Below, in pieces: positions 4,344-21,775 of a DNA stretch of 64,000 nucleotides. This DNA comes from Yoonia sp. (GTDB taxonomy: Bacteria; Pseudomonadota; Alphaproteobacteria; Rhodobacterales; Rhodobacteraceae), in assembly GCF_014859355.1 (NCBI RefSeq), contig NZ_JACUUJ010000002.1:77115-141114 (forward strand). Reading direction: 5' to 3'. The position numbers were made by a program, and so were the translations under genes. The notes beneath the pieces were generated by a model, which saw nothing but the letters and a program-made list of their open reading frames with translations, had not been told where the DNA came from and made no database searches. Position 1 is the stretch's first letter, and each line of letters begins with the position of its first letter.

Positions 4344-4612
4344 TGTTTTACCGAGTCGCTATGGGGCGAAGTAGCCCGGTGGCGCGAAAAAATCCATCAT
4401 ATCCGATTTTGTGTTGCAAAAGTGTCAACAGTTCGGCGCGATTGTGACGGATTTGTGCGGTATCGCTCATATCTCAGTGCGCCACAGTCAAGATGCAATC
4501 TGAGGCGACACCTGTGTGGCGCAGCAAATGCCTTGTCTGCAAAGCGAGCGAGGACACAGCAGAAAGAATTGTCTACTCGTCGCGGGGGCGGACCTGCTCT
4601 AGCATTTGACGC

Positions 4613-5161: not shown

Positions 5162-5283
5162 TATTAATCCGGGCAAAGGGTTTGTGGTTTGATGTCGGTT
5201 AATGTGCCGGCTGTCTGTCTGGGTGATCAAAGAAACTGAATGGGTCTTTGCGCGGTTTGGCGCACCCTGTGATGAGGACGCGC

Positions 5284-7152
5284 ATGCCGGAAAAAAACCA
5301 TAAAACACTGGGAAAGCAACCAAGTGCAGCACCTGAACCCGCTGTGCTACCACTGCCTGTCGCCGAAGAATCGCGTTCAGGGCTGGATGCTGAGCCCCCT
5401 GAAATTGTGCGAAACCTTCCCTTTGATACGCCGGATCGTTACAGCACGAAAAGTCTTGACCGGGCGGCAAATGCGCATCTGGCCCGCTTCACTTTGGGCA
5501 TTTCCCCCTATGGGCTGACGTCAACATGGGTGGCGTGGTGGACGCATCTGGCAGGGTCGCCGGGCAAACAGTTGCAGTTGATCGAAAAAGCGACCCGCAA
5601 AGCGATGCGTCTTGCGGTGCATGCGGGTGAACTTGCCCGCTATCCTGATGCGGCACCTTGTATTGAACCCTTGCCCCACGACCACCGGTTTGATCACGAC
5701 GCCTGGCACAAATGGCCGCATAATCTGATGTACCAAGGTTTTTTGCTGACGCAGCAGTGGTGGTATAATGCGGCGAGCGATATTGACGGGCTTAGCACAC
5801 GCGAAGAACAGGTTATTTCTTTTGTCAGCCGTCAGCTATTGGATATGGTATCGCCTTCCAACTTTGTGGTCACAAACCCTGAGGTTGCCGCTGCTACACT
5901 TCGCGAAGGGGGGGCGAACCTGCTACGCGGCTTTCAGAACTTTCTGGAAGATTGGGAGCGTGCAATTTCCGGCAAACTTCCTCTTGGCACGGAAAATTTC
6001 AGGCCTGGTCACGCGGTCGCGGTGACGCCGGGCAAGGTTGTTTTCCGCAATCGGTTGATTGAGCTGATCCAATATACCCCCCAGACAACCAAGGTGAAAC
6101 CCGAACCTATCCTGATCATTCCCGCGTGGATCATGAAGTATTACATTCTTGATCTGAGCCCGCATAATTCGCTGGTCAAATACCTTGTCGCGCAGGGTTT
6201 CAGCGTGTTCATGATTTCATGGCGCAACCCCACGGCAGAAGACCGTGATCTGGGGATGTCGGATTATCTTGAGGCCGTGACAGAGGCTCTGGATGCCGTC
6301 AGCGCCATCGTCCCTGATGTGAAAATTCATGCGGTGGGATATTGCCTTGGCGGCACATTGATGGCGGCAAAAGCGGCGCAAATGGCGCGGGACCGCGATA
6401 ACCGCCTTGCCACATTGACACTTTTGGCGACGCAGACAGATTTCGAAGAACCCGGAGAGCTTCAGCTTTTTGTCAGCGAAAGCGAGGTTGCCTATCTTGA
6501 GAACATGATGTGGGATCAGGGCTATCTGGACACAAAGCAAATGGCGAGCGCATTTCAATTGCTGCGCTCGGCTGATCTGATCTGGTCGCGTTATGTGCAT
6601 GAATACCTGATGGGCAGCCGGCAAGAAATGTTCGACCTGATGGCATGGAATGCGGATGCGACACGGATGCCGTATCGGATGCACAGCGAATATTTGCGCA
6701 AAATGTATCTGGGCAATGAACTGGCCGAGGGAAAGTATATGATCGACGGCAAACCCGTCACCGTGCGCAATATCCGGGTGCCGATTTTCTGTGTCTCAAC
6801 CTTGACCGATCACGTGGCCCCATGGCCGTCAGTTTACAAACTGCATTTGCTTGCAGATACGCAGATCACGTTTGTTTTGACCACCGGAGGTCATAACGCG
6901 GGGATCGTGAATGAACCGGGACGAGAGGGCCGGAGCTATCAATTATGCACGACTGAAAAAGGTGAAACATACGTCGCGCCAGAAGATTGGCAGGCGGCTG
7001 TCGATCGCCAGCAAGGGTCATGGTGGCCTGCGTTTGTCACGTGGTTGTCAGACCGATCCGGCACCCCGGTCACCCCGCCGCGCATCGGGGCAAGCAAAGG
7101 GCGCTATCGCCCGATTGATAATGCGCCGGGGTCGTATGTCTTGCAGCGATGA
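5284..7152 (+). CDS. phaC: class I poly(R)-hydroxyalkanoate synthase
   Basis: ORF 5248..7152. Lipase-box GYCLGG with the catalytic Cys, an alpha/beta-hydrolase C-terminal half and a PhaC-type N-terminal half. Start set at ATG 5284 (GAGGA lies 5 nt upstream); TTG 5248 or ATG 5272 are also possible. Confidence 0.85.
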   Translation: MPEKNHKTLGKQPSAAPEPAVLPLPVAEESRSGLDAEPPEIVRNLPFDTPDRYSTKSLDRAANAHLARFTLGISPYGLTSTWVAWWTHLAGSPGKQLQLIEKATRKAMRLAVHAGELARYPDAAPCIEPLPHDHRFDHDAWHKWPHNLMYQGFLLTQQWWYNAASDIDGLSTREEQVISFVSRQLLDMVSPSNFVVTNPEVAAATLREGGANLLRGFQNFLEDWERAISGKLPLGTENFRPGHAVAVTPGKVVFRNRLIELIQYTPQTTKVKPEPILIIPAWIMKYYILDLSPHNSLVKYLVAQGFSVFMISWRNPTAEDRDLGMSDYLEAVTEALDAVSAIVPDVKIHAVGYCLGGTLMAAKAAQMARDRDNRLATLTLLATQTDFEEPGELQLFVSESEVAYLENMMWDQGYLDTKQMASAFQLLRSADLIWSRYVHEYLMGSRQEMFDLMAWNADATRMPYRMHSEYLRKMYLGNELAEGKYMIDGKPVTVRNIRVPIFCVSTLTDHVAPWPSVYKLHLLADTQITFVLTTGGHNAGIVNEPGREGRSYQLCTTEKGETYVAPEDWQAAVDRQQGSWWPAFVTWLSDRSGTPVTPPRIGASKGRYRPIDNAPGSYVLQR

Positions 7153-7970: not shown

Positions 7971-8971
7971 GGCGCGTAATTCGGGTTCACAAATCTGTCC
8001 ATTGGATTGTGTAAAAAAGCAAGGTTGATCGCCGGTGCGTCGCCGCCGGTGAACCAGTTGGACAAAAGCGCAACAAACGTCGCGCCGCTGGCCGTGCCAT
8101 AAAGCCGCCCGCGCCCGCCGATGGCGACCCAGACAGCAAGGTAGATCGACGCGATCGGCGCGATTTCAGCGGGGTTGATGATGCCTGGTTGGGGATAATA
8201 CAGCGCGCCCGCAACCCCGGCGACCATCGCTTTCAGGGTAAAAATGAACAGTTTGTAGCGTTCGACATGATACCCAAGAAACCGGACGCGCGCTTCGTTA
8301 TCGCGGATCGTCTTGTTCACGCCGCCGAATTTACCTGACGCGACCCATGCGCACAGCAGATACCCCAATGCCAATGCCAATGCCAATGCCAACGCCAGCG
8401 CAGAGGCGTAAAAGAAGGCCAGCGAAATCGTGGATTGCGGTGGCTATTCAAAGCCGGGGATGTTCTGCAGCCCCGACAGGCCGTTGTTGCCGCGCAAGCC
8501 GCTGTCATTCTGGAACTGGTAAAGCGCCAGCGCCAGTGTGCCTGCCTGTGTCAGGATCGACTGGTAAACCCCGGTGACCCGGCTGCGGAAGGCATGCCAG
8601 CCAACGACCAGTGCCAGCAGCCCCGGCACCAGCACCACTATCAGCAATTGCAATGGCAGGCTGTCGGCAAAGGCCCAGAGCCTTGGAAATTCGGAACTGC
8701 CAACCACCCCGAAAATCTGGTTTCCGATGGCATAGCCGCCAACCCCGAAAAAGGCGAAATGCCCAAGACTGGGAATGCCACAATATCCAAACACCACGTC
8801 CATTGCGATGGCGACAAGACACAGGCAGAGTGTTTTGCCCAATGTTTTCACAAATGACGTGGAAATAACACCGATGCCTGTCTCTGAGAGCATCGTCACG
8901 CCGATAATGAATAGGCTGAGCGCCACAAGTAACCACAAGGTTGATGGGTTGCGCATCAAAAAACTTTTCAT
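7967..8971 (-). pseudogene. urtC: urea ABC transporter permease relic (urtC-like), frameshifted and C-terminally fused or deleted
   Basis: Two ORF pieces, 8444..9052 (MKSFLMRNPSTLWLL... from 8971) and 7967..8392 (...IRDNEARVRFLGYHVERYKLFIFTL...GIINPAEI...), lie in different frames. The C-terminus runs directly into the ATPase remnant. Confidence 0.6.
8365..8394. repeat. hexanucleotide microsatellite (CCAATG)x4 plus one CCAACG, inside the urtC relic
   Basis: Read directly: ccaatgccaatgccaatgccaatgccaacg. On the minus strand it encodes the ALALALAL run at the start of ORF 7967..8392. Confidence 0.9.
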
Positions 8972-9024
8972 GAAATGGGCCTTTGTTGGGCGAGGTTTTG
9001 CGCCGCGCGATGCGCGTCGCCAAG

Positions 9025-9081
9025 CTGGAGGGGTTTCACCCCTCCAGACCACCCCAAGGTATTTTTGAACAAAAGAAGGGG
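9025..9081 (+). repeat. intergenic hairpin-plus-tail module, copy inside the urt relic
   Basis: Perfect hairpin ctggagggg-tttca-cccctccag, then accaccccaaGGTATTTTTGAACAAAAGAAGGGG. The tail matches 57425-57448 at 22 of 24 positions. Confidence 0.6.
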
Positions 9082-9088
9082 TATGCGT

Positions 9089-9712
9089 CTAATCCGCGGC
9101 GGCGCGGCCTTTGAGGGCGACGATGCCCTTGGGCCGGAACTGGATAAAAAGAATGATGAAGATGATCATGAAGGTTTGCGCGGCAAGGGTGTTGGACGGG
9201 TTGAACCATTCGATCCCCTTTTGCAAAAAGCCGATCAGTGAAGCGCCCGCCAGTGTGCCCCAGACGTTGCCAACGCCGCCTACCACGACTGTCATGAAGG
9301 ATTACACGATATAATCCGCGCCCGTTTCAGAAGTGACTTTGGCATAAACTCCGATCGCCACGCCTGTAATTCCAGCGATGCCGGACCCCAGCCCGAAGGT
9401 CAGCAGGTTGATCCCCATGGAGGCCGCCATGCCGGGATTCTGGGTGACGGGGCGCACTTCCAACCCGAGGCGCGTCCGTTTGAGAATGTAGATGATCAGC
9501 GCCAGCACAAAAATCGCAACCCGGATATAGCTGATCTGGAGGATCTCGCTGAACACCAATGCGCCGTCCAGCCATGCGGGTGATGTCAGGGGGAGGGCCT
9601 GTGTGCCAAAGATATTTTTCGCCAGTTGTTGCAGCGCGATCGAAATGCCGAATGTCGCCAGCAGAGTTTCCAGTGGCCGGTGGTACAGGTGGCGGATAAC
9701 CAGCCGTTCCAT
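9089..9712 (-). pseudogene. urtB: urea ABC transporter permease relic (urtB-like), N-terminally truncated and frameshifted
   Basis: Pieces 9302..9712 and 9089..9295 carry LivH/UrtB-like permease segments (...LGLEVRPVTQNPGMAASMGIN..., ...MTVVVGGVGNVWGTLAGASLIGF...). Together they give only about 200 aa, in two frames. Confidence 0.55.
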
Positions 9713-9737
9713 GGCAGCCTCCGCACCGCGGCGTGGT

Positions 9738-10665
9738 TCAGTAGTTGCATGTCAACTGCACGCAGGTTTGCGTTTCGGTGTTATACATCCCGCAACCAAG
9801 TGTCTGCCAATCCGAGATCAGCACAGCGCTTTCCGGCAGGAAATCTGTCCATGCGTCGCCGGGCACTTCGGTGGTTTGGCTGATGATGTCAAACTGCCCA
9901 TCGGCCTGAATTTCACCAATCAGCACCGGTTTGGCGAGGTGGTGGTTCGGCAGCATAACGGCCGTGCCATCGGTCAGATTTGGAAATTCCTGCCCGTACA
10001 TCGCGCTGCGCAAGTCATCGACAACGGTTGTGCCTGCCTTTATCACTGCGTTCGCCCACATGTTGAAACCGATATAATGCGCCTCCATCGGGTCGTTGGT
10101 AACGCGGTTTTCACCCATGAACGCCTTTCATGCGGCGATGAATTCCACGTTGGTGGGGTATCTGCGGACTGGAAATAGTTCGCCGCAGGAATCGCCTGCT
10201 GGTTCGGCGCGGCACCGGTGTAGAACACATTGCGCGCGCTTTCTTCGCCTTCATATTGCACAGGATAGAACAGCAGTCCGTTCAGTTCCTCGATTACCGG
10301 CAGCACGGATTTGTGATTGACGCTGGTCCAGTTGCCAAAGATCATGCCCACCTCGGATACGGTCAGCAATTCGCGAGCTATTTCGGCAAACAGCGGCCAG
10401 TCGGACACAGGGTCAAGTCGGACACAGGGTCAGCCACGACGGCCTCGATCTCGCAGTCCAAAAGATCGCCCGCCGCGTTTTGCTGTGCGATCAGCATCAG
10501 CATCACGTCTTTCAGCGTGGTTTCGGAAATGGCCATCGACCCTGACAGCGAATGCAGCATGCCGACCTTGATCGGGGCGGCGCAATCTTGTGCGGTGGCG
10601 ATACCAGTGGTGGCCAGCGAGGCCGCAAGCGCGGATGCACTGATAAATGTCTTATGTGGCATCAA
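9738..10665 (-). pseudogene. urtA: urea ABC transporter substrate-binding protein relic (urtA-like), multiple frameshifts
   Basis: Three overlapping ORF pieces in different frames: 10378..10665 (signal peptide plus KVGMLHSLSGSMAISE), 10043..10408 (...[13 protein letters not shown]...[12 protein letters not shown]) and 9738..10118 (...CVQLTCNY C-terminus). One break coincides with the 17-bp tandem duplication at 10400-10433. Confidence 0.6.
10400..10433. repeat. 17-bp tandem duplication inside the urtA relic
   Basis: gtcggacacagggtcaa followed immediately by gtcggacacagggtcag. It lies at the frame break between ORF pieces 10378..10665 and 10043..10408. Confidence 0.9.
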
Positions 10666-10858
10666 TATATGTTCCCGTTTTATCGCGGCGTTGCCCTATG
10701 AACGGTTCGACCGGCATGGTAACAGGGTGTCCGCAACAGTGATGTTGTCGCCGCGCAGCGTGTCTCAGGCTGCGGGCGCTCAATTCAGGCATAAATGCTG
10801 AATTGTAAATTTCAGCGCCGTCAAAACGGAAAATGCCAGTTCATAAGGCAGGGCAGAA

Positions 10859-11779
10859 TCAATTCTTTGGAATGGCGGCAAAGAATGGGCGCCATGCGGC
10901 AATCACCGTATCCGGACATTCTTCGGCCAGATAATGCCCGCCGGGCAAGGCCCAGCCGCGCACATCGGTGGCCCGTTCACGCCACAGCGCCAAGCAATCA
11001 AAATGCGCCTCTATCGCGCCATCCCGGCCCCAGAGCGCCAGCAGAGGCATGGCCAGTTTGCGGGGGTCTGCATCATCATGGGCGATGTCGATCGTTGCGG
11101 CGGCGCGGTAATCTTCGCAAGCGCCATGAATGGCTGCTGGATCGGCAAAGCGGGTCAGGTATTCATCCAGCGCCTGTTGCACGAAAGGTGTCAGGCCAGC
11201 CTTGCCCGCCCCACATTTGGACAGCCAGAAAAACGCAGGGTCAGGTTTGATCAAAGTTTCGGGGAAAGGGTGCGGCAGCGTCAGCCAATACCAGTGCCAA
11301 TAGGTGTGGGCAAAGGCACTGCCGGCGTCGCGATACATTTCGCGCGTGGGCGCGATGTCTAACGTGGCAAGTGCCAGCACTCGGTCGGGGTGATCGGCGG
11401 CCAGCCGATGCGCCACACGCGACCCGCGATCATGCGAACCGACAAGAAACCGATCATGCCCCAACGCATCCATCACCGCCAGAATATCGCCTGCCATCGC
11501 ACGTTTGGAGTAGGGCGTGTGCTGCGCATCGGTGACCGGTTTGAACGACCGGCCATACCCACGCAGGTCAGGGCAGATCACCTGATGATCCCGCGCCAGA
11601 TCTGCGGCAACGATATGCCACATCGCTGATGTCTGCGGATAGCCATGCAGCAGCACAACGGGTGGCCCGGACCCGCCGATTCTACAAAAGACAGGGCCAT
11701 CGGCCGTTGCAAAATATCTTTCCTTGAAACCGTCAAAGAAAGTCTGGGCGACAGGTGCGGATGCGACGGCTGGATGCAT
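10859..11779 (-). CDS. alpha/beta hydrolase, haloacetate (fluoroacetate) dehalogenase / epoxide-hydrolase-like
   Basis: ORF 10859..11830; likely start is MHPAVAS at 11779. Motifs LLHGYPQTSAMW, SHDRGSRVAHRLAADHPDRV (nucleophile Asp), YWHWYWL and DPAAIHGACEDYRA closely follow the haloacetate dehalogenase pattern. Confidence 0.8.
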   Translation of the reverse strand: MHPAVASAPVAQTFFDGFKERYFATADGPVFCRIGGSGPPVVLLHGYPQTSAMWHIVAADLARDHQVICPDLRGYGRSFKPVTDAQHTPYSKRAMAGDILAVMDALGHDRFLVGSHDRGSRVAHRLAADHPDRVLALATLDIAPTREMYRDAGSAFAHTYWHWYWLTLPHPFPETLIKPDPAFFWLSKCGAGKAGLTPFVQQALDEYLTRFADPAAIHGACEDYRAAATIDIAHDDADPRKLAMPLLALWGRDGAIEAHFDCLALWRERATDVRGWALPGGHYLAEECPDTVIAAWRPFFAAIPKN

Positions 11780-11836
11780 GGTTACACCTTGTTCAATCGG
11801 GATCATCTTGCTGTCGTAGTCCCTGCCCAAATTCGC

Positions 11837-12652
11837 TTAATCACCAAAAATCTGCGTCCAGGATGCCAACAATGCGGGCAAACCATCTGCCGGGCCAGAG
11901 ATCAGGCATTGTTCACCGTCAACCACGGCCAGACAAAGCATCTGATTGGGCTGTTTGGTTTGAATGCCGATCAACATCGGGGTTGCCGGTTTTCCCACAA
12001 CAGATTTGTGGCGCTTGCGAAACAGGGTGATCTGGGTTTTCCAGATGTCTTGCAGGCGGGCTGTGTCGCCGGTGGTCTGGGGCGGTTGCCCATCCGCGAC
12101 ATGATAACTGGCGGTGATCAGTGCTACATTCGCTGCCACAAACTGCTGCAATGCGGTGGCTGGCTGTCGCACGGTATCGACCGCCCACGCGCTGGCAAGG
12201 GCCGCGGTCGCAACCCCGGCCTCGGCGCTGGAACCAAGCGGACGCGGTGCAGTGCTGATCACGGTGACCTGTGGTGTCGCGTCGCAAAGCTTTTTCAGAA
12301 GTGTGCCAATGGCCGCAAGTGGCGCGGGATCATCGCGTGAAAAGATTTGCCCCACGATGTCATCCTGCGCCGTAACATCGCCAGATATTTCGACAATGCC
12401 TTTCAAACGTCGCCCGGCCACAACCGCATGAACGTTTGTCTGGCCAATGCCAAAGATCAACGTGCGTTCCAGCACGGTGTCGTCGATTTCGCGCAAGATG
12501 GCAGCAAGTGGCGGCAGATCGTGGCTGATCAAGCGCTTGCCGTCTTTTAACCTGGCGTTTTTTTCAACAAGCGCCGCCAGTTTGGTGGCGATGACGGATC
12601 GGTCAGGCACAACACGCCCCCTTTGCGACAGTTGCGGGCCGAACAGCATCAT
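11837..12652 (-). CDS. hypothetical protein, last gene of the kinase/GTPase cluster; possibly two Roadblock-like halves
   Basis: 271-aa ORF whose ATG overlaps the upstream stop (ATGA at 12649-12652). No motif I recognise. Its C-terminal half (MLIGIQTKQPNQMLCLAVVDGEQCLISGPADGLPALLASW) has a strand-strand-strand-helix pattern like the upstream Roadblock-like protein. Confidence 0.5.
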   Translation of the reverse strand: MMLFGPQLSQRGRVVPDRSVIATKLAALVEKNARLKDGKRLISHDLPPLAAILREIDDTVLERTLIFGIGQTNVHAVVAGRRLKGIVEISGDVTAQDDIVGQIFSRDDPAPLAAIGTLLKKLCDATPQVTVISTAPRPLGSSAEAGVATAALASAWAVDTVRQPATALQQFVAANVALITASYHVADGQPPQTTGDTARLQDIWKTQITLFRKRHKSVVGKPATPMLIGIQTKQPNQMLCLAVVDGEQCLISGPADGLPALLASWTQIFGD

Positions 12653-13011
12653 GCACCATGGCTGATCTTCTCAAGACAGGGGCGGGCATCAGACAGAAAG
12701 CCCGGCACGTCAAGATTGGGTGCGCAGACGCAGCACAACACATCGCTTGGTTCTGATTCCGAACGTAGAAAGATCCTGAGCTGGTTTTTTGTGGCAACAA
12801 AGGCCACGTTGCCAGGATTCGCGCCCAGCATGACCATTTTGGCATCACCCAAAACAATCGCAGCTTCGGCGCACAGCATGTCCAGCGTTTCCCGCCGCAA
12901 TTGCGTTTGTGAATTTGTTACCAGAACCATCTGAGTTGACAGATCGGCAAAGGCAACTGTTTCACAGCCGGCATGCCTGTCCTGCAATGCGTCCAAGTCA
13001 TCCATGACCAT
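12649..13011 (-). CDS. small Roadblock/LC7 (MglB)-like protein, tentative
   Basis: 120-aa ORF. Size and predicted alpha-beta-beta-alpha-beta-beta-beta-alpha pattern (ETVAFADLS, MVLVTNS, helix ETLDMLCAEAAIVLG, NVAFVATKN, LRIFLRSES, VLCCVCAP, helix FLSDARPCLEKI) fit the Roadblock fold. No profile search was run. Confidence 0.45.
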   Translation of the reverse strand: MVMDDLDALQDRHAGCETVAFADLSTQMVLVTNSQTQLRRETLDMLCAEAAIVLGDAKMVMLGANPGNVAFVATKNQLRIFLRSESEPSDVLCCVCAPNLDVPGFLSDARPCLEKISHGA

Positions 13012-13093
13012 GGTTTTTGCCCGCCTTTTTGCGCTTTTTGCACTTAACTACGTCAAAACAGGCCAAGGGGGAAGCCTGGACAAGCACGTGTTG

Positions 13094-13948
13094 TCAGGAT
13101 GATCTGATGATCGGGTCAGTAAAAGCGGCCGTATTGGCAGGCAGTCGCGGTTTTGCTGTCTGGTCACTTTCGGTCGGGCGCATGACACGGCGGGGGGTTA
13201 CGGGCGCCATCACCGGGGCGGGCAATTGCGTAACATTGGCATAGTTATACAATCCTTCGGGTGTCCGTGCTGCCAATTCAGACAGCCGCTGAATCATGTC
13301 GATCAGGTGATTCACAAAAGGGCCTGCGCCGCTTGCATCCCATTTATCAGGGTCGTCGCCGGCTTGAAGCGCCTGGATCAGTGAAATCGGGAATGTGCCG
13401 GCGAACTGGCCCTTTGTTTCGCGCATCACACGTTTTAGCACGCGGCGACGGTCATTTTCAGTTGTCAGTTTGTCAAATCGCGTGATCAGCAAGATCGAAT
13501 TGTCGCGCACTAGTTGGGGGATCGTATCCCATACGGCCGACTCTGATTGGCGCCAGGCCTGCGTTGCATGGGTGCACCAGATGACAGCGTCAACTTCTGT
13601 CAGGACGCGTTCCCAGACGGTGGATGACATATTCGGGTCTGAAATCCCCGGGAAGTCGATCAGATCACAAACGTCAAGGATATCTGATTCAAGGAAAAGG
13701 CGGATCACCCGGGTTTCATGGACCGGGACGTTAATAAGCTGGTCAATCGATACGGGTTCGGTCGATCCGTCAACGTCAACCCGGTATGGGGCGTCGGTGC
13801 CATGCGACATCCAGACCGGTGACAAGCGGGTTGCAGTTACTTTTTCGGGCAGCGGGCGCGCGCCCAACAAAAGATTGGACAGCGTGCTTTTACCTGCGCT
13901 GAATTCACCCATCAGGGCAATACGGGGTTTGCGCTGCGCGGTCATCAT
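13094..13948 (-). CDS. short dynamin-like/P-loop GTPase (GTPase domain only)
   Basis: 284-aa ORF. G1 GEFSAGKST, G3 DFPG (LIDFPGISD) and G4-like TRFDK. ATGA overlap with the upstream BDLP gene. Confidence 0.7.
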   Translation of the reverse strand: MMTAQRKPRIALMGEFSAGKSTLSNLLLGARPLPEKVTATRLSPVWMSHGTDAPYRVDVDGSTEPVSIDQLINVPVHETRVIRLFLESDILDVCDLIDFPGISDPNMSSTVWERVLTEVDAVIWCTHATQAWRQSESAVWDTIPQLVRDNSILLITRFDKLTTENDRRRVLKRVMRETKGQFAGTFPISLIQALQAGDDPDKWDASGAGPFVNHLIDMIQRLSELAARTPEGLYNYANVTQLPAPVMAPVTPRRVMRPTESDQTAKPRLPANTAAFTDPIIRSS

Positions 13949-16029
13949 GCTGCTCCTTCGATGGCGTCGGCACGCGTGTCGCTCAGTTCGTCAAAGATGA
14001 AATCGAACAGCTCTTGACGTTTCTGTTGCGCGGTTATGCCAAATATTTTTTCCAGTTCCGCAACGCCGATATGTGACTTTTCGCTCATATCCATCAGAAA
14101 ACTGCGCTGTTCCAACAAAAATTCGCGCAGTTCCGCTTGCGCCATGCCGCGGATGACTTCCGCTTGCCGGATTTTCAGTTCATCCACGATCGGTGTGGTT
14201 TCTGCCTCAATCAAGTCATAGAAGCCGCTGGCAAAGGCGCGGTAACCTTTGCGACGTTGCCACCACCCTTTCCACCATGATGTTTGCAGGTCCAATGCGA
14301 TGGTTTTGCCCAATGATACGGGCGCGGGGATTTCTGGCGCAGCAGGCGGCGTGATCGAAAAGTTTTCGACAGCAACCCCAAAAGCCGTGCGGTATGTGTC
14401 GGCCAGATCATTTGCCGCTGCCGCAAAGACCTGTTCGCAGGTCGATGCCACATTGCGGCGCATCACCTGATAGCTGGTGCGCAACAGCATCCGCAGGCCG
14501 TCGGGGCTGTATTGCCAAACTTCGTCTTCGCCATTGGTTTCAAGATGTTGCAGCAGCGATTCCAACGCCCGTTCAAGGAATCGCTTGTGCGATTGGTCTA
14601 CCCGTGATGCAAATTGTTGAAACACGATATCCAACCGGTCATTCAGAAAGGTCAGGTTATTGGCTTCCAGATTGCGCAGGTGCATTTTCAGTTCGGCCTG
14701 CGGCATGATTTCGATAGCGTCACCATCCAGGCGCATCGACACCACCGAATCAGAGGCGCGCACGCCACCGACAAGGTTCAGCGCACGTTTGCGCGACGCA
14801 GCAAGGATTTCTGTGCCTGCGCCTTCGACGATGCGTTCTGACAGGGCTTTGTATAGCTGGGGAACACCGGAGAGATGCCAGACAAGTTCATTGATTTCCA
14901 TGTCGGCGGTTTCAGCGCTCAACGATGCTTCGGCCCAGTTGAACATGGCTTCGGCGCTATCGGCAACAATGGCGTCAAGATTTTCTGCAAGTGCCATATT
15001 GGCCCAATAGGCGCTGCCAAAAATCAGCTCAGGATCCGCCGGGCCGTTGTTGTCGGCTAGGGTTTTCAAAATGCTGTCACGGATTTCAGGCACCTGGCTC
15101 GCGGGATCTGCCAATTCGTCGATCCGGTTCACGAAAATCACGACTTCACGTGATTTGACGTTCGCAATCAGCCGGATCAGCCCCATGTCCATCGAACTGA
15201 GCGCCTGATGTGCCGACAGCACGACGACGCAGATGCGGCTGTCACGCAGCGCGTTGATCGTGATTTGTTCGCGCATCATAAAGGTGTCGTTCACGCCGGG
15301 TGTATCACGCAGGCACAGCGCCATCGGAATTGCATCCGCCTTCAGGTAAAGATCGGCGGATTTGGTGATATCGGCAAAGCGGCCTTGCTGGTCTTGTTCG
15401 TCCAGATCTTCGAAATCGTCACCCATGCAGACATAGCGCTGCACAAGATCATCATTGATGTCGGCGTAATTGTGTTTTTGACCCAGAAGAAGTTCAAATT
15501 TCCGGCCCAGGCGGGCTTTGGTTTTTTCACGCATTTCGGCGATCTGCGTTCGGATTTTTTCCAGTTCGTCGTCAGCACCGGCCCGGCTCGATAATTCACC
15601 GATTCGGCCGCCGTTTTCGACCAGATGGTCCCATTCGTTCTGACTGAAGAATTGAAAGGTCGCTGTGGGGGCATCCGCAGGCAAGGGCGTATTCAAGTGT
15701 AGCGACGTCACAACCGACGTCCATGGGTTTACGTCAGCGGGCAGCAGATCAGGCCGGCCGATCATCGCGTTGACCAGCGAAGTCTTGCCCGACTTGATTT
15801 GCCCAATCATGGTTACGCTTGGTTCAAATGCACGTAATTGCTTGATAATGCGGACAGATTTTTTTTCTGCGTCAGCTCCGCCCAGTTTTACAATATCCGC
15901 CAGCGTCAATTCGAGGTCGTTGACCTCGTCATGAAATGCCTCAAGCTTTTCAAGGCCAAGCCGCATGAAAGGGTGATGGGCTGCCGGAACCTTGTAACCG
16001 TCCCCCTTTGTCAGCTCTTCCATTTTCAT
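13945..16029 (-). CDS. bacterial dynamin-like protein (BDLP/DynA/LeoA-type large GTPase)
   Basis: 694-aa ORF. G1 GQIKSGKTS (res 75-83), G3 DTPG (res 242-245) and G4 NRID (res 301-304). A long helical C-terminal stalk carries the W/K/R-rich patch TSWWKGWWQRRKGYRAF (res 583-599). GAGGA-type SD before the ATG. Confidence 0.75.
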   Translation of the reverse strand: MKMEELTKGDGYKVPAAHHPFMRLGLEKLEAFHDEVNDLELTLADIVKLGGADAEKKSVRIIKQLRAFEPSVTMIGQIKSGKTSLVNAMIGRPDLLPADVNPWTSVVTSLHLNTPLPADAPTATFQFFSQNEWDHLVENGGRIGELSSRAGADDELEKIRTQIAEMREKTKARLGRKFELLLGQKHNYADINDDLVQRYVCMGDDFEDLDEQDQQGRFADITKSADLYLKADAIPMALCLRDTPGVNDTFMMREQITINALRDSRICVVVLSAHQALSSMDMGLIRLIANVKSREVVIFVNRIDELADPASQVPEIRDSILKTLADNNGPADPELIFGSAYWANMALAENLDAIVADSAEAMFNWAEASLSAETADMEINELVWHLSGVPQLYKALSERIVEGAGTEILAASRKRALNLVGGVRASDSVVSMRLDGDAIEIMPQAELKMHLRNLEANNLTFLNDRLDIVFQQFASRVDQSHKRFLERALESLLQHLETNGEDEVWQYSPDGLRMLLRTSYQVMRRNVASTCEQVFAAAANDLADTYRTAFGVAVENFSITPPAAPEIPAPVSLGKTIALDLQTSWWKGWWQRRKGYRAFASGFYDLIEAETTPIVDELKIRQAEVIRGMAQAELREFLLEQRSFLMDMSEKSHIGVAELEKIFGITAQQKRQELFDFIFDELSDTRADAIEGAA

Positions 16030-16188
16030 CCTAGTCCGTCCTCAATTAAAAATTGGGTGTTCACCAGTCATTTGTCCGCAGTTGCGCCAATGGATGCGAT
16101 CAACACCTGTTTATTGCTATTATGGAAACAGATCAGAACGGCAAAAATATGGCGGCTGTTTTAGAAATCGGCCAAGTTTTGTCACGGT

Positions 16189-17511
16189 TTATGCAGCAAG
16201 ATCCGCCTGAAGCTCATGCTTGATCTGAATCATCAGGCTGAGCGCCTCGACTGCGGCGCTGTCGCGCTTTTCCATTTGCATCAATTGGACAAGGTCTGCG
16301 GCATCCATCGCGGTGTCGCGCACACGGGTCAGCGCCGGGTCGGCATCATCACCATTCGCGTTCAGATATTCACTAAGCCATTGCAGATGTTCCACCGTTT
16401 TATCCATGATCTGTGCCGGGGCGGCGTCCCCCAATTCGGCCGCCAGATCAAGCAATGTCTGACTTTGATCGATGATATAATCCAGCACATGTTCATACGC
16501 CGCACGAGTCGCGGGGTGCAGGGTTACGGTTCTTTCGTCAGAATGCGCCGTGTGGTCATCGGCAGGCACAATGTCTGCGGCTGGTGCGGGTGCATCAGGC
16601 GCAACGACGACGGGTTCAGGGTCAATTGCCGCAAGGTCCGACACGTCGTTTGATTGCGGTGTTTCCAGTTGCGCGGCGGCGTTGCTGATCGCATCGGGGT
16701 GTTGCAAAAGCAAAACCTCGGCCATGTCCAACGTCGATTGGTGGCCCATTTCGACCTGTTTCAGTATTGCGGAAATCAGTGCCAACCCGCCACTGCTGCG
16801 CATCTTGTTCTTATCGACGCTGCCATCGGGCTGGCGCGCGGCCAGGGCATCGCGGGTCGCGATCGGCATTATCTGGTTGAATTCATCCCGTGCGACATCC
16901 CGGATGGTGTCCAGCGTTGCATCCAGCACCCCTTCGGCCATCAGCGTGTCGGCCTTGGTGACCATCAGAAAACCATGATCCTTGATCAGGTCCGGCATCT
17001 GTCCCCAAATTGCCTGTTCGGCTGGACGAAATGCCTGTGAACACCAAATTGCGATATCACAGCGTTTGGACGCCCATTGGCTGGCCCGCTGCAGGGCGGT
17101 TGGGTCATGCGGGGCGACCACCTCTAGCACGGAAATCTTACGCAGTGCAGGTAAGGGTAACTGCATTTCGACAAAGGCAGGTGACAGCACCGCGACCTGT
17201 TGGACATCACTGTGCGACAGCGTTTGCCGAGTGCCGTCAGGCAAGGTGCAAATTGTCTGCGCTGTCTTGTTGAAAGACAATTGCAGGGTGGGCAGGCGCA
17301 GGCCTTCCGCCATGATGTCGGCGCCAACAAGCAGGTTGACCAAATTTGATTTGCCCGATCCAGGCAAGCCCATCAAGGCAATCCGTACAGGTTGTTCCAG
17401 GCGCGCCAGGATCTTTGTTGCGCGATCCTGAACCTCGGGGGGCAGACGACCGCCCGCGATCGCTTGGGTTAGGTCGTGCTGTATCTTTTTTTTACGCGCT
17501 TGATCCGACAT
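16189..17511 (-). CDS. P-loop GTPase-like protein with degenerate switch II and an acidic helical C-terminal half
   Basis: 440-aa ORF. G1 GLPGSGKSN and G4 TKAD are present. The position where DxxG is expected reads ISVLEVVAPHD, with no Asp and no Gly. The start overlaps the PP2C stop by 1 nt (TAATG). Confidence 0.6.
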   Translation of the reverse strand: MSDQARKKKIQHDLTQAIAGGRLPPEVQDRATKILARLEQPVRIALMGLPGSGKSNLVNLLVGADIMAEGLRLPTLQLSFNKTAQTICTLPDGTRQTLSHSDVQQVAVLSPAFVEMQLPLPALRKISVLEVVAPHDPTALQRASQWASKRCDIAIWCSQAFRPAEQAIWGQMPDLIKDHGFLMVTKADTLMAEGVLDATLDTIRDVARDEFNQIMPIATRDALAARQPDGSVDKNKMRSSGGLALISAILKQVEMGHQSTLDMAEVLLLQHPDAISNAAAQLETPQSNDVSDLAAIDPEPVVVAPDAPAPAADIVPADDHTAHSDERTVTLHPATRAAYEHVLDYIIDQSQTLLDLAAELGDAAPAQIMDKTVEHLQWLSEYLNANGDDADPALTRVRDTAMDAADLVQLMQMEKRDSAAVEALSLMIQIKHELQADLAA

Positions 17512-18551
17512 TATTTTACTCCGGCAGCAATTTTCGCTGGCGGCAAAGATGATTCCTCATCTGATGCTTTCGTATCTGATGGGTTCAATGATTTCAGCGG
17601 TTTCACCTGCTTTACCTTCGGCGCTGGCGCCTTGTGCGGTGTGACGGCAGCGATCGGTTCTGGTATGGCAACATCGTTCAATTCGACCAGACGGGTGATA
17701 GACGCGTCGTGCGTTTCGACATGGCCCAAAGGCTTGGCGCGGATGGCGCGGATTACGGGTTTGTTGTGGTTCAGCTTGATGACCGAAAACGATACGTTAT
17801 CCTGATCCGGGTCGGCGAGGGATTCAATCGCTTCGAGCAGATATCCAGCGATTTCGGCGCTTTTGCGGCGGCGATAACGGTGAAGGATCTTTTGAATTTG
17901 CTTGTCCTCAAGGTATTGCAAACCATCGCTGGAGACGATCACAATATCGCCGACCTCAAGCTGAAAAGGTATTTGGGGGCAATCCGATTTGGCAACACGT
18001 TCCCCCAGAATAACCGAGGTCAGGCAGTTGCGATCAGGGTGGTTTTTTCCTGCTTCGGGCGCCAGCAATCCCGACTTTACCATAAAGTCGATCTGGGGCG
18101 CCATGGAATGGTCTTCGTTCAGTTGTTGCAGTTTGCCGCCCCGGAAATGATAGAGAGGCGAATCGCCAATCGACATCCAGAACATCCGGTTCTCAATCAA
18201 AACCAATGATACAAGCGTGGCCCCCATTCCGCGGGTTTCGGGGTTCTGCTGGACATGCGCACGCACGCAATTATTCGCATTTACGGCCGCCGAGGTCAAA
18301 AATTGCGGGATCTCGTTTTCGAAATCGGCAAAGTTCGCGCTTTGGAATTTCAGTTCACTGAAAACTTCTGTCACAACGATCTTGCTGGCAACATCACCAG
18401 CCGCATGGCCGCCCATGCCATCTGCCAAAACGACAACGCCGCTATCGGCGCCAAATGGGAAATCGGTGACGATGGCATCTTCTTGATAATCGCGGCCACC
18501 CTGGCAGATTGCTGATGCGACATCAAAACGTGGTTCAGGCGATCGCCACAT
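17511..18551 (-). CDS. PP2C-family Ser/Thr protein phosphatase
   Basis: ORF 17511..18647; likely start is MWRSPEPRFDV at 18551. Motifs RDYQEDA, LADGMGGHAAGDVAS and VSSDGL. Lys/Pro-rich C-terminal tail. Confidence 0.85.
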   Translation of the reverse strand: MWRSPEPRFDVASAICQGGRDYQEDAIVTDFPFGADSGVVVLADGMGGHAAGDVASKIVVTEVFSELKFQSANFADFENEIPQFLTSAAVNANNCVRAHVQQNPETRGMGATLVSLVLIENRMFWMSIGDSPLYHFRGGKLQQLNEDHSMAPQIDFMVKSGLLAPEAGKNHPDRNCLTSVILGERVAKSDCPQIPFQLEVGDIVIVSSDGLQYLEDKQIQKILHRYRRRKSAEIAGYLLEAIESLADPDQDNVSFSVIKLNHNKPVIRAIRAKPLGHVETHDASITRLVELNDVAIPEPIAAVTPHKAPAPKVKQVKPLKSLNPSDTKASDEESSLPPAKIAAGVK

Positions 18552-19383
18552 CTTCGTTCTCCTCGTTTGTGCCGTTGGACCAGTTGAATGTTTCGTCACA
18601 CAGCGCCACAAACCGCAGCACCGTTTCACCGATGCGGATGATATCACCTGATCTCAGTTTTTCATTACTGATCAGCGGTTTTTCGTTCAGCCGCACGATG
18701 TTTGATTTGCCACCGTGCCCTAACAGAAATTCTTTGCTTTGGGGATCATAGACAATTGCTGCATGGTTGGTGCGCGAAATGGCGTTATCCCCGAAATCAA
18801 GCTGCACAGCCTGATCTTCGCCACGGCCAATTTGCGACATGCCTGCCATTAGCGAAAAGCTTTCGCCGCGCCCCGGACCTTCGGCAATGACAATCCAGCC
18901 AACGGGGAACTTTGCGCGTTGTGTTGCTCCGGCTTTTGGTGCGTCATTGAACAAATCAACGACATCACCGTTTGATTTTTCAAAGCCGATCAATCGGGTT
19001 TTGGTGCGCCGCGACCGTGCCGGTGATCTTGCGGCGGCGACAATGCTGGCCTCTTGTGGGGTAGGCGCGTGCTGTGCCGTTGGCTGACCGTCATCTTCCA
19101 TGTCCCAGATGCTCATCGGGTGTGCAGGTTCCGCCACGGGCGCTGCGTCCGGCGTTGGGGCGGCCGATTGTGCGGCGATCAGCTTGGCATTGACGCTATT
19201 CAGCATGTCCAATTCGCCGTGACCGCCTTCGTCATCTTCAATGGCGTGGCGTTGCAAAACCTCTTGTTCTTCGGTCAGTGCGCCGATGGTGTCGCGGTAT
19301 GACTGTTCCAGCGCATCCACCTGGTTGGTCTGCGTTTGTGCCGCGTTCCGCTTTTTTCCGATAAGTGCCCGAATAAAATTCAT
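18535..19383 (-). CDS. FHA-domain protein
   Basis: 282-aa ORF. The C-terminal ~100 aa, GRGEDQAVQLDFGDNAISRTNHAAIVYDPQSKEFLLGHGGKSNIVRLNEKPLISNEKLRSGDIIRIGETVLRF, matches the FHA signature (G-R...S-R/x-x-H...N-G/x). The N-terminal half is low-complexity and Thr/Ser-bearing. Confidence 0.8.
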   Translation of the reverse strand: MNFIRALIGKKRNAAQTQTNQVDALEQSYRDTIGALTEEQEVLQRHAIEDDEGGHGELDMLNSVNAKLIAAQSAAPTPDAAPVAEPAHPMSIWDMEDDGQPTAQHAPTPQEASIVAAARSPARSRRTKTRLIGFEKSNGDVVDLFNDAPKAGATQRAKFPVGWIVIAEGPGRGESFSLMAGMSQIGRGEDQAVQLDFGDNAISRTNHAAIVYDPQSKEFLLGHGGKSNIVRLNEKPLISNEKLRSGDIIRIGETVLRFVALCDETFNWSNGTNEENEDVAIA

Positions 19384-19444
19384 CTTTGCTACCTTATAGT
19401 TTGTTGCAAAGGCGTCGATCCAGCGGCGCCCTGACGCGGTTTAA

Positions 19445-21775
19445 TTATTGATCCATGTTCATGGAGGCGACCCACATGCTGCCTTCACGCTGCACCGCAA
19501 ACATGAACTGTGTGGTTCCCGTGTCGATCTCACGTTCTAGAATGGTTGCCAGTGTATCACGGGCTGTGATGCGTTCTGATGTGGGGATGTAGGATGTTAC
19601 GATGTCGCCGGGCCGCAGGTCTGAGGTGGTGTTCGAGGGCACATCAACGACAACGGTCCGCCAGTTGGAACCGGCAAAGGACGACTGAAACCTGATCCCG
19701 TTCAACATGACGATGTCTTGGATGACCGGCATGATCCACGCACGATCCGCGGTTTCGCCCGTTGCCGGGTCACGGGTGCCAAAAACCACCTGCACCGTGT
19801 CGCCCTGTGATGCCTGCTGATTGGCACGCAAGGTTGCCGGAATGTCGCCAATGCTGTCAATCGGCGTGCCGTTCACCGCCGTGATTTCCAGCCCTGGACG
19901 CACCCAAACCGGCGTGACTGCGCCCAAAGCGCCAACGACATTTGACCCGGGCGCATCGGATTGGAAGGGCAATTGCACAGACCATACGGATACCACACTA
20001 GGCGGCGGCAATTCGTTGCCGGGGGTCACGGCGTCAATGTCGATGATCAGTCCGTTGCCAACGGCGGCGACGGACTCTGGCGTGGCCGCGAACACAAGGT
20101 CGGCCATTTCAGTTTCGACGATGGACCGGCTGACGCGCAGTTCGGGAAATGCGATCGCCGCGGCCGGTTCCGTGCTTGTGGGGCGCGGGGTCATCACGGG
20201 TTCTGGAACAGGCTGCGTGACGACTGCCGTCATGGCCGCGATTTCCACCGCGTCCGCGCGGGGCACAGGGCGGATTTCCGGTGTTGCAATGTCGTCACTT
20301 GCTGCAACAGGGCCACCGATGATCCCAGCGTCTGTCCCGGTTCCGATTTCGGGGGCTGCTGTATCTGTTGTCAGTGTTGGTGTGGGCTGGGCCTCGGCCA
20401 TGACGGGTGCCGGATCAGCAATCGCGTCAGGCGCAACATTCGCTGACTGCACGGGCGCCGCCGGCAAGTCTGGTGCGGCTGGTTCAAAAGCAGGCGGTGC
20501 AGATGCAGGCGCTGTGGCCGGTTGATCCAGCACGGCTGTTTCAGTCACAACAACAGGTGGTGTGTCTGAAGGCACTGCGACAACCGTCGAAACAGCGGTA
20601 TCGTCACGACCCGGCATAAGCATCACACCGACGCCCACCATAATCGCCAGCACTGCCGCAGACCCAAGAAGCATTGGCAGTTTTGATTTTTGTTGCGGCG
20701 CAGCCACATCGATGACAGGGGCCGCTTTCGCGGCTGGCTTGATCGCCGTTCCCACCTTCAGTGGTGTGACATTTCCCGGAAGACCATCCATCATGTCCAG
20801 CCATTCCCGGGCGGATTGCAGACGATCCTTTGGCAGTACGGCCAAAGCCTTGTCGATGGCGGCCAAGAACGAATCTTCGTATTCAGTGATCCGGCCGACC
20901 AATGGCACATAAGGGTCGGGTTCGCTGGATGCGACGGCGGCCAAACGCGCCTGGCTGTTGGGGGGCACTTGTTTGGCAATCAAATGGTAAAAGGATGCAG
21001 CCAAGGCATAAAGATCGCTGCTGGGGCCTTGCTCGCTGCCTGCGATGTAAAATTCCTGTGGCGAATATCCGTCCTTGACCACGCGCAGGGCCGACAGAAC
21101 CCGGCTTTGCTTTGTTGCCTGTTCGCGGGCTGCACCGAAGTCAATCAACACAGGGTGAAACTGCGCATTGATAAGGATGTTGTCGGGCGAAATGTCGCGG
21201 TGAAGGATCCCTTGTTCGTGGATGAAACCAACAGCGCCAAGCGCTTCTTTCAGGATCACCTTGATCTGGGTAGGGGTCAGCCCGTGGTTGGGGTCTTCGA
21301 TCGTATCAAGCAGGTCGCGCCCTTCCACAAAATCGAGCGCCATATAGGCCGTTTCGTTGTCTTCAAAAACCTGATGCACCCCCACAATGTTGGGGTGATC
21401 CAGTTTCGCAAGGCTGCGCGCCTCTTGGACGAACAGGCGGACGATAGATTTCAATTCGTTCTGATGCGCGCGCGACCGGGCCTGCACCACATAGCGGCTA
21501 CGGCGGCAAAATGCGCCGGGGAAACATTCCTTGATCACGATCTTGCGGTCCAGGCTGTCCCGCGCAAGATATGTGATCCCGAAACCACCTGCGTTCAGGA
21601 AACTTTCGATCGTGTACTGGCCGTGCATCAGTTTTGTGCCTGGCTTCAGTTCATCGACGAAGCTGTCCTTGTCGTCTGTGTTTTCTTTCACCAGTGGCTT
21701 ACCCATCTCACATCCAGCTCTCAACTTGCGGTGGTTACACGGATTTTCCGGTAACTGTTGATTTTTATCTCTCAT
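19445..21775 (-). CDS. membrane-anchored Hanks-type Ser/Thr protein kinase with a large extracytoplasmic domain
   Basis: 776-aa ORF (start could be MGKPLV at 21706). Gly loop NAGGFGITY, VIKE Lys, HRDISPDNILI, DFGAA and SPQE. One TM segment (LPMLLGSAAVLAIMVGVGVMLM, res 366-387). Pro/Ala/Thr-rich linker (about res 395-545). Folded-looking C-terminal ~230 aa. Confidence 0.85.
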   Translation of the reverse strand: MRDKNQQLPENPCNHRKLRAGCEMGKPLVKENTDDKDSFVDELKPGTKLMHGQYTIESFLNAGGFGITYLARDSLDRKIVIKECFPGAFCRRSRYVVQARSRAHQNELKSIVRLFVQEARSLAKLDHPNIVGVHQVFEDNETAYMALDFVEGRDLLDTIEDPNHGLTPTQIKVILKEALGAVGFIHEQGILHRDISPDNILINAQFHPVLIDFGAAREQATKQSRVLSALRVVKDGYSPQEFYIAGSEQGPSSDLYALAASFYHLIAKQVPPNSQARLAAVASSEPDPYVPLVGRITEYEDSFLAAIDKALAVLPKDRLQSAREWLDMMDGLPGNVTPLKVGTAIKPAAKAAPVIDVAAPQQKSKLPMLLGSAAVLAIMVGVGVMLMPGRDDTAVSTVVAVPSDTPPVVVTETAVLDQPATAPASAPPAFEPAAPDLPAAPVQSANVAPDAIADPAPVMAEAQPTPTLTTDTAAPEIGTGTDAGIIGGPVAASDDIATPEIRPVPRADAVEIAAMTAVVTQPVPEPVMTPRPTSTEPAAAIAFPELRVSRSIVETEMADLVFAATPESVAAVGNGLIIDIDAVTPGNELPPPSVVSVWSVQLPFQSDAPGSNVVGALGAVTPVWVRPGLEITAVNGTPIDSIGDIPATLRANQQASQGDTVQVVFGTRDPATGETADRAWIMPVIQDIVMLNGIRFQSSFAGSNWRTVVVDVPSNTTSDLRPGDIVTSYIPTSERITARDTLATILEREIDTGTTQFMFAVQREGSMWVASMNMDQ

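Follow-up and report, generated by a model that had tools for sequence, protein, structure and literature searches.

An eight-gene cluster conserved in marine Rhodobacterales joins a dynamin-like protein pair to Roadblock-like proteins and a kinase, FHA, and PP2C module

The 64,000-nucleotide (nt) stretch of Yoonia sp. contig NZ_JACUUJ010000002.1 analysed here (positions 77,115 to 141,114; hereafter the window) carries eight tightly packed minus-strand genes between positions 11837 and 21775, coding for a protein kinase, an FHA-domain protein, a PP2C-type phosphatase, a P-loop protein, a dynamin-like protein (DLP), a short dynamin-type GTPase, a Roadblock/LC7-fold protein, and a last protein that appears to be Roadblock-like. 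An earlier note, made from the letters of the DNA alone, had proposed that they form a phospho-regulated membrane-remodelling or Eleos-like defence system. Its gene coordinates agree with a check of the open reading frames (ORFs), and its spacings were recomputed with identical results, being, in gene order, a 61-nt gap, a 17-nt overlap, a 1-nt overlap, a 159-nt gap, a 4-nt overlap, an 82-nt gap, and a 4-nt overlap. The motifs it listed are all present (HRDISPDN, DFG, DGMGGH, and the P-loop sets GQIKSGKT/DTPG/NRID, GEFSAGKS/DFPG/TRFD, and GLPGSGKS/TKAD), and the domains it assigned hold throughout, with Pfam backing the kinase, FHA, PP2C, and Dynamin_N calls, and AlphaFold2 (AF2) models searched with Foldseek backing the Roadblock call. 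The genes are as follows, with lengths in amino acids (aa):

19445-21775, minus strand: kinase, 776 aa
18535-19383, minus strand: FHA protein, 282 aa
17511-18551, minus strand: PP2C, 346 aa counted from ATG
16189-17511, minus strand: P-loop protein, 440 aa
13945-16029, minus strand: DLP, 694 aa
13094-13948, minus strand: short dynamin-type GTPase, 284 aa
12649-13011, minus strand: Roadblock/LC7-fold protein, 120 aa
11837-12652, minus strand: last gene as first called, 271 aa
11837-12610, minus strand: last gene with its most likely start, a GTG at 12610, 257 aa

The last gene had been entered as a 271-aa protein of unknown type. The gene itself stands, and its product is most likely 257 aa long because an AAGGGGG Shine-Dalgarno-like sequence lies upstream of the GTG at 12610, homologues are 253 to 262 aa long, and the NCBI annotation gives 257 aa; the true junction with the 120-aa gene is therefore unlikely to be the ATGA overlap. 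Nor does the label "unknown" fit any longer, as the model of this protein has matches of the Roadblock type.

Products of the eight genes

The 694-aa DLP and the 284-aa GTPase both match Pfam Dynamin_N above the gathering score (5.8e-12 and 6e-10, respectively), and the former is 100% identical to a Yoonia protein named "dynamin family protein" by NCBI. A profile of the 694-aa family recovers Cj-DLP1 (5owv_A, 2.4e-13), Nostoc BDLP (2j68, 2.1e-12), and then Fzo1 (3.7e-5) from the PDB, and the best PDB match of the 284-aa protein is Cj-DLP2 (5owv_C, 1.1e-12). The long protein is of BDLP-like length, and its alignments to the LeoA and LeoBC profiles reach past the G domain; the short one is a G domain with a ~60-aa tail and no stalk. 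Dynamin G-domain motifs are nearly invariant in both families (G1, G2, G3, and G4 among the 284-aa orthologues), and the two genes, which overlap by 4 nt (ATGA), are neighbours in all 90 loci examined. A hydropathy scan finds no transmembrane (TM) segment in any of the seven non-kinase proteins, the DLP included. The DLP does contain a Trp/Arg-rich segment (TIALDLxxxWWxxWWxRR) that is kept across a 35-sequence alignment down to 24% identity, and this segment is likely a membrane-binding element and plausibly the interfacial anchor of the protein. The G domains and this motif lie at the following positions:

nt 14968-15816, minus strand: G domain of the 694-aa DLP, ~residues 72-354
nt 14242-14304, minus strand: Trp/Arg-rich motif TIALDLQTSWWKGWWQRRKGY of the 694-aa DLP, residues 576-596
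nt 16750-17385, minus strand: G domain of the 440-aa protein, residues 43-254, with P-loop GLPGSGKS and G4 TKAD

The cluster had been described as having three dynamin-like GTPases, which is correct for two dynamin-type proteins; the third is a degenerate form that lacks G3. This 440-aa protein reaches only P-loop-level Pfam scores, and BLASTP aligns it to the 284-aa GTPase at 27% identity over 218 aa (E 2e-18), which makes the two proteins paralogues. LEVVAP stands in the place of the G3 DxxG, and all 22 of 22 orthologues keep the P-loop and have G3 replaced by L-E-V-x-x, most of them with a T[KR]xD-like G4, so that the protein probably binds nucleotide but hydrolyses it poorly. Its C-terminal half is non-conserved and predicted to be helical, and its counterparts vary in length, with 832 aa in Rhodobacter calidifons (locus L072, 7330-9828) and 535 aa in locus L053.

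The fold of the 120-aa protein bears out the Roadblock guess. The AF2 model, built from a 41-sequence alignment, has a predicted local distance difference test (pLDDT) score of 82.9 and the topology a-b-b-a-b-b-b-a, and Foldseek against the PDB returns Roadblock/LC7 matches throughout (TM-score 0.75-0.79, probability 1.0), including Streptomyces 3kye, Myxococcus MglB 6hjm, LAMTOR2/p14, Asgard Roadblocks, and MglC. The sequence has no Pfam match at E <= 0.1 (Robl_LC7, PF03259, included) and none by NCBIfam or PDB sequence search, and Pfam, NCBIfam, and PDB sequence searches with the 257-aa protein are likewise without a match, and structure prediction alone pointed to the fold of both; one UniRef entry for a 120-aa orthologue is named "Roadblock/LAMTOR2 domain-containing." The model of the 257-aa protein (pLDDT 86.5) has two domains, an N-terminal a/b domain that fits no clear type and a C-terminal half (~residues 150-255) with the helix and strand order of the 120-aa Roadblock model. 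Foldseek matches it to LAMTOR, Roadblock, and MglB structures over ~110 columns (E 2e-3 to 1e-2, probability ~1.0) and weakly to Mon1-Ccz1, and we regard it with moderate confidence as Roadblock-like. The two families have no profile similarity to each other (hhalign probability 0.1) and are therefore not detectable paralogues; the 257-aa protein is the fastest-evolving member of the cluster.

The remaining three products form a signalling module. The kinase (Pfam Pkinase, 3e-30) has a single TM segment, found by hydropathy scan, and a Pro/Ala/Thr-rich linker that joins it to a periplasmic C terminus:

nt 20786-21634, minus strand: kinase domain, ~residues 48-330
nt 20606-20686, minus strand: single kinase TM segment, residues 364-390
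nt 19448-19990, minus strand: probable tandem PDZ-like module of the kinase, periplasmic C terminus, residues 596-776
nt 18982-19017, minus strand: FHA-protein motif R-x-K-T129-R-L-[I/L]-G-F, just ahead of the FHA domain
nt 18607-18885, minus strand: FHA domain, residues 167-259

A profile of 13 orthologous kinase C termini aligns across DegP PDZ1-PDZ2 (3mh5, E 1.7e-4), and Pfam finds PDZ_6/PDZ in 7 of the 13 (best 7.5e-6); a PDB search with the C terminus of the window kinase as a single sequence gives no match. The periplasmic sensor is thus probably a tandem PDZ-like module, which lends support to the view of the earlier note that this is an envelope-sensing kinase. The FHA protein (Pfam FHA, 3.6e-7; weak NCBIfam matches to FhaB/FipA and OdhI, far below the cut-offs) begins with a conserved MKFIRxLIGKK, followed by an acidic, non-conserved linker. 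All 22 of 22 orthologues have its T129, and the pT-x-x-[I/L] pattern at this position suggests a self-binding switch like that of GarA and OdhI. The PP2C matches Pfam PP2C_2 (1.3e-11) and NCBIfam Stp1/IreP (2e-43, under the equivalog cut-off).

Two further observations concern these proteins. Thr611 of the DLP lies in an E-T-T-P motif (LIEAETTPIVD, residues 606-616, ~14182-14214, minus strand) that is invariant in 22 of 22 orthologues and recalls the ETTS motif of GarA; Thr611 as a second candidate phospho-site is purely speculative. The kinases of loci L055, L069, L078, L081, and L087 are ~445-475 aa long and cytoplasmic, with FHA proteins of 340-454 aa that have a long acidic linker, and the FHA protein of locus L092 is 708 aa long.

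Conservation and linkage of the genes

When genomes were scanned with a diverse alignment of DLPs, at least 584 relatives came up. The best 80 loci are all in Rhodobacterales, with DLP identities of 51-85%, except for one contig labelled Luminiphilus. Enough flanking sequence for gene content to be judged by tblastn, phmmer, and family hidden Markov models (HMMs) was available at 58 loci. The eight genes are present in the same order and on the same strand in 46 of these 58, including loci of Yoonia, Loktanella, Cognatiyoonia, Aestuariibius, Actibacterium, Litoreibacter, Albidovulum, Jannaschia, Marivita, Tateyamaria, Shimia, and Hasllibacter, a degree of conservation that is more than chance packing. 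Eight loci, of the Tabrizicola/Rhodobacter clade, are without the kinase only. The kinase occurs together with FHA and PP2C in 46 of the 58 loci, and FHA with PP2C in 54. One locus, on a Leisingera plasmid, has the regulatory half inverted, such that the two halves are on opposite strands; one, from Ruegeria, is a variant with two DLP pairs together with Roadblock-like genes and a kinase; one has seven of the eight genes in order, the 257-aa gene being undetected; and one is a distant relative (32% identity) with a bare DLP pair. The full set is still present at 46% DLP identity (L081) and in L092, and L091 has a permuted order (Roadblock, 275-aa protein, kinase, 444-aa protein, PP2C, 418-aa protein, DLP). 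The cluster is thus kept together in many genomes and in three different arrangements, as the co-localisation check proposed with the earlier note had called for.

The small proteins and the gene junctions are part of this linkage. The 120-aa Roadblock and 257-aa families are small, their HMMs match 79 and 75 of 90 loci, respectively, and they are found only beside these DLPs; the 17-nt FHA/PP2C overlap and the overlap of the DLP and short GTPase genes recur in annotated Leisingera plasmid records. Flanking genes are conserved only inside the Yoonia clade and not between genera. Across the Yoonia/Loktanella clade the locus adjoins the gene for GAPDH syntenically, and among the same Yoonia-clade genomes identity is 75-85% for the DLP as compared to 73-79% for the adjacent GAPDH, with 48-71% for the Roadblock protein and 30-44% for the 257-aa protein. 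Leisingera, Ruegeria, and Rhodobacter have additional divergent copies on plasmid records, all of them non-mobilizable.

The 159-nt gap in the middle of the cluster contains one conserved non-coding feature:

16110-16132, minus strand: conserved non-coding block TCTGTTTCCATAATAGCAATAAA, ~80-100 nt upstream of the DLP start codon

An alignment of 11 orthologous regions shows that TCTGTTTCCATAATAGCAATAAA is common to the Yoonia-clade loci and that the surrounding intergenic sequence has diverged, and the block may be an internal promoter or operator. Because of this block and the Leisingera inversion, the cluster probably comprises two coupled transcription units, one from the kinase to the 440-aa gene and the other from the DLP to the 257-aa gene. 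A promoter and terminator scan of the cluster gave predictions not above the shuffled expectation and is therefore uninformative on operon structure, and a CtrA-box search (TTAA-N7-TTAA) had 0 matches.

Several individual loci have features of note. The contig labelled Luminiphilus (L025) is from a gammaproteobacterial metagenome-assembled genome, carries the full cluster with a DLP 78% identical to that of Yoonia and the same GAPDH and hydrolase flanks, and is most likely a mis-binned Yoonia-like contig. The Ruegeria conchae 787-kb plasmid record NZ_CP081104.1 (L088) codes at 8582-19885 for DLP pairs of 666+547 aa and 680+429 aa, as well as a Roadblock-family protein (HMM E 1.7e-10), a 282-aa hypothetical protein, and a 731-aa kinase; FHA and PP2C are not listed in its PLSDB gene table, which is incomplete. 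Leisingera sp. S132 has two extrachromosomal copies on separate plasmids, the second of them divergent, and one of its plasmids (L086) carries two "substrate-binding domain" genes between FHA and kinase (16535-18879), of which the one scanned has a LysM peptidoglycan-binding domain, hinting at a cell-wall link.

The window around the cluster is a housekeeping region, with genes for GAPDH, an ABC transporter, an S49 peptidase, UvrC, a thiolase, PBP1A, PheT, pyruvate kinase, and PhaC, and it contains no tRNA genes and no Rfam matches. Two ordinary housekeeping or metabolic genes lie at positions 2193-7152, coding for a 716-aa subtilase (Peptidase_S8, minus strand) and the 634-aa poly-hydroxyalkanoate synthase PhaC (plus strand). 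Following the cluster after a short gap is an alpha/beta-hydrolase gene (Abhydrolase_1, 7.7e-28; 10859-11830, minus strand; likely ATG near 11803), which holds this position in just a part of the Yoonia-clade loci and is missing outside that clade, and it is therefore probably not a component of the system.

A candidate phospho-gated membrane-remodelling machine

The reading that we lean towards, if only somewhat, is that the eight genes are one functional system, vertically inherited in Rhodobacterales, and that this system is a resident, regulated, phospho-gated DLP machine for membrane remodelling or repair, perhaps set off by envelope stress. In bacteria, DLP genes are mostly found two to an operon, with products that work together as a heterotypic pair (PMC6104087), and the engine here would, by homology, be such a pair of the Campylobacter DLP1/DLP2 kind. 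The TM-less 694-aa DLP would bind the cytoplasmic face of the inner membrane through its Trp/Arg-rich motif, with a 284-aa partner that seems reduced to a G domain with intact catalytic motifs, and the 440-aa paralogue without G3 may serve as a regulatory or capping G-domain partner. MglB and Ragulator regulate or scaffold small GTPases, and the two Roadblock-fold proteins could by analogy form an MglB/Ragulator-like platform that sets the nucleotide state of the short GTPases or recruits them.

The input in this scheme would be the membrane kinase, sensing the periplasm via its tandem PDZ-like domains. The PDZ domains of DegS, DegP, and RseP read exposed protein C termini during envelope stress, and envelope damage would be the trigger in those versions of the cluster that bear PDZ-like domains. 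The kinase would then phosphorylate a Thr, a good candidate being T129 in the FHA protein's own TRL[I/L] motif, which would create a switch like that of GarA and OdhI; engagement or release of the GTPase module by the FHA protein would follow, and the PP2C would reset the system. The presumed output is maintenance, repair, or reshaping of the inner membrane upon envelope damage.

Some of the observations weigh against this scheme. A 284-aa "DLP" that is a G domain only would be unable to tether membranes as Cj-DLP2 does, and the Roadblock call on the 257-aa protein has behind it a Foldseek E value of only ~2e-3. The PDZ evidence is weak for the window's own kinase (E 0.013), the assignment coming from the family profile, and in many orthologous clusters the kinase is short and cytoplasmic, with neither TM segment nor PDZ. 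Within ~6 kb upstream of the Tabrizicola/Rhodobacter clusters no Pkinase gene was detected, and a 531-aa ORF there is without a Pfam domain, so a kinase seems absent in cis in this clade. Together, the short cytoplasmic kinases and the clade without a kinase in cis mean that periplasmic sensing is not a universal input; as judged from gene content, the input to the cluster is variable between orthologous loci.

A more tentative proposal, less likely than not, is that the Roadblock-fold proteins are dedicated regulators or adaptors of bacterial dynamin-superfamily GTPases and that the whole machine is switched by eukaryote-like Ser/Thr phospho-signalling that reads the envelope through PDZ domains. 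To our knowledge there is no described precedent for a Roadblock-dynamin pairing, and for most dynamin-like proteins of bacteria neither the physiological role nor the regulation has been worked out. If true, this would be the first Roadblock-dynamin partnership and also the first case of a dissected signalling pathway upstream of a bacterial DLP, it would extend the regulatory range of the Roadblock fold beyond small Ras-like GTPases, and it would give heterotypic DLP machines under regulation a model in bacteria. As the host order is alphaproteobacterial, the cluster would also bear on how regulation arose in mitofusin/OPA1-type machines and in Roadblock/longin GTPase platforms. The cluster offers clear genetic handles. 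Its kinase has an identifiable sensor, its FHA adaptor contains a Thr that is a candidate switch, and it also codes for a phosphatase, intact and degenerate GTPases, and two Roadblock-fold proteins, such that DLP regulation is directly testable from signal to kinase, FHA, GTPase module, and membrane; cultured genera such as Leisingera, Ruegeria, Jannaschia, and Yoonia carry copies.

The main alternative, unlikely in our estimation and overlapping with the preferred model, is a cell-growth or division module akin to the actinobacterial FhaA/FhaB-PstP-PknA/PknB system, in which the DLPs act at the septum or growth pole under phospho-control by the state of the cell wall. Streptomyces DynA/DynB stabilise division rings, and the housekeeping-like conservation of the cluster, the LysM-domain proteins inserted in the Leisingera cluster, a PG_binding_2 protein beside a distant DLP pair, and zapE near the Ruegeria variant are all in keeping with such a role, as are the weak matches of the FHA protein to FhaB/FipA and of the PP2C to Stp1/IreP. 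However, these NCBIfam matches are far under the cut-offs, no ftsZ, rodA, or pbp gene lies inside the cluster in any locus examined, and neighbours beyond the eight genes are not conserved between genera. The two readings are partly compatible, as both involve membrane remodelling, which in the growth and division version would be site-specific.

Less likely still is an anti-phage system, whether Eleos-like or a new dynamin-based type, in which the DLPs seal or sacrifice the membrane and the kinase, FHA, and PP2C proteins sense infection. Bacillus subtilis DynA is reported to protect against phage, and some defence systems include Ser/Thr kinases; both DLPs have weak LeoA and LeoBC profile matches, the kinase matches the PD-T4-6 and mad6 profiles, the accessory proteins evolve fast, as seen in the Yoonia-clade identities of the Roadblock and 257-aa proteins, and divergent extra copies are present on extrachromosomal replicons, two of them in Leisingera sp. 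S132. In PADLOC, however, the 694-aa protein scores 31.5 bits to LeoA over profile positions 105-336 of 559 (41%) and 19.9 bits to LeoBC, the 284-aa protein scores 27.7 bits to LeoA over 31 profile positions, the kinase matches reflect generic Pkinase similarity, and there is no defence assignment beyond these. A viral-contig scan with the DLP found no copies, and every plasmid copy is on a non-mobilizable replicon. The locus is fixed beside GAPDH in the Yoonia/Loktanella clade with a DLP that is more conserved than GAPDH, and the 64-kb window contains housekeeping genes with no defence or mobile genes seen. The Eleos-like part of the original proposal is accordingly unsupported, since the LeoA and LeoBC matches are weak and partial and no viral copies were found, with the housekeeping context and clade synteny pointing the same way, and the cluster serves as a caution that not every dynamin-like pair should be scored as an Eleos defence system.

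That the kinase/FHA/PP2C operon and the DLP operon are two independent units, adjacent by ancestry only, is very improbable: the conserved block in the 159-nt gap, the opposite strands in Leisingera, the clade without a kinase in cis, and distant DLP pairs that occur alone (L089) would fit this, but the halves stay adjacent despite inversion, permutation, and movement to plasmid records, down to 46% DLP identity, the 440-aa gene of the "signalling" half is paralogous to the 284-aa GTPase gene of the "DLP" half, and the eight-gene set is conserved between genera where the flanking genes are not.

Comparison with known systems

The statement of the earlier note that no characterised system is known to have this gene set agrees with full-text literature searches, which found no paper describing the cluster; the conflict-systems paper of Kaur et al. 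2020 mentions neither dynamin nor Roadblock. The closest known system is the DLP1/DLP2 pair of Campylobacter jejuni (PDB 5owv; PMC6104087), which is likewise encoded by two adjacent, translationally coupled dynamin-family genes. The long partner here, at 694 aa, is close in length to BDLP and DLP1, whereas the second is a 284-aa G domain without a stalk or tethering arm, as compared to 614 aa in Cj-DLP2, and the similarity is limited to the G domain. Beyond the Campylobacter pair, the cluster adds a G3-less paralogue, two Roadblock-fold proteins, and the kinase/FHA/PP2C module.

Eleos shares with the cluster dynamin-like GTPases encoded side by side and is the source of the weak LeoA/LeoBC matches, but it is a two-gene LeoA+LeoBC system (10.1101/2022.12.12.520048) as opposed to the eight genes here, which have a core-genome syntenic context without a defence neighbourhood. 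Assignment to Eleos was rejected, as there are no strong, full-length LeoA and LeoBC matches and the context is not defence-island-like.

MglA/MglB and the actinobacterial conservons (CvnA-D) also have a Roadblock-fold protein encoded beside GTPase genes, in line with the familiar role of Roadblock proteins in regulating GTPases, with the differences that the partner GTPases here are dynamin-type and not small Ras-like ones as MglA and CvnD are, and that Pfam Robl_LC7 finds no match. Conservon membership was rejected on the dynamin type of the GTPases and on the lack of a histidine kinase, with no HATPase or DUF742 matches in the cluster, and MglAB membership on missing components.

The Hanks kinase/PP2C/FHA triads (PpkA-PppA-Fha1 of the type VI secretion system [T6SS], mycobacterial PknB-PstP-FhaA/FhaB, and the GarA/OdhI switches) contain the same three domain types, with catalytic motifs that are intact here. 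They differ in that the sensor here is tandem PDZ-like and not PASTA or VWA, the presumed output is the DLP module, and there are no T6SS or cell-wall synthesis genes in the cluster. A T6SS PpkA/PppA/Fha1 checkpoint was rejected, as no T6SS families are present among the flanking window ORFs scanned, which are not an exhaustive set, or in annotated related loci. Finally, the periplasmic module of the kinase aligns to DegP PDZ1-PDZ2 with weak similarity, which connects it to DegS, DegP, and RseP, although here the PDZ-like module is on a Hanks kinase and not a protease, and many orthologous kinases are without it. The components are therefore familiar from these systems, and it is their conserved combination of Roadblock-fold proteins, dynamin-type GTPases, and phospho-signalling that is unexpected.

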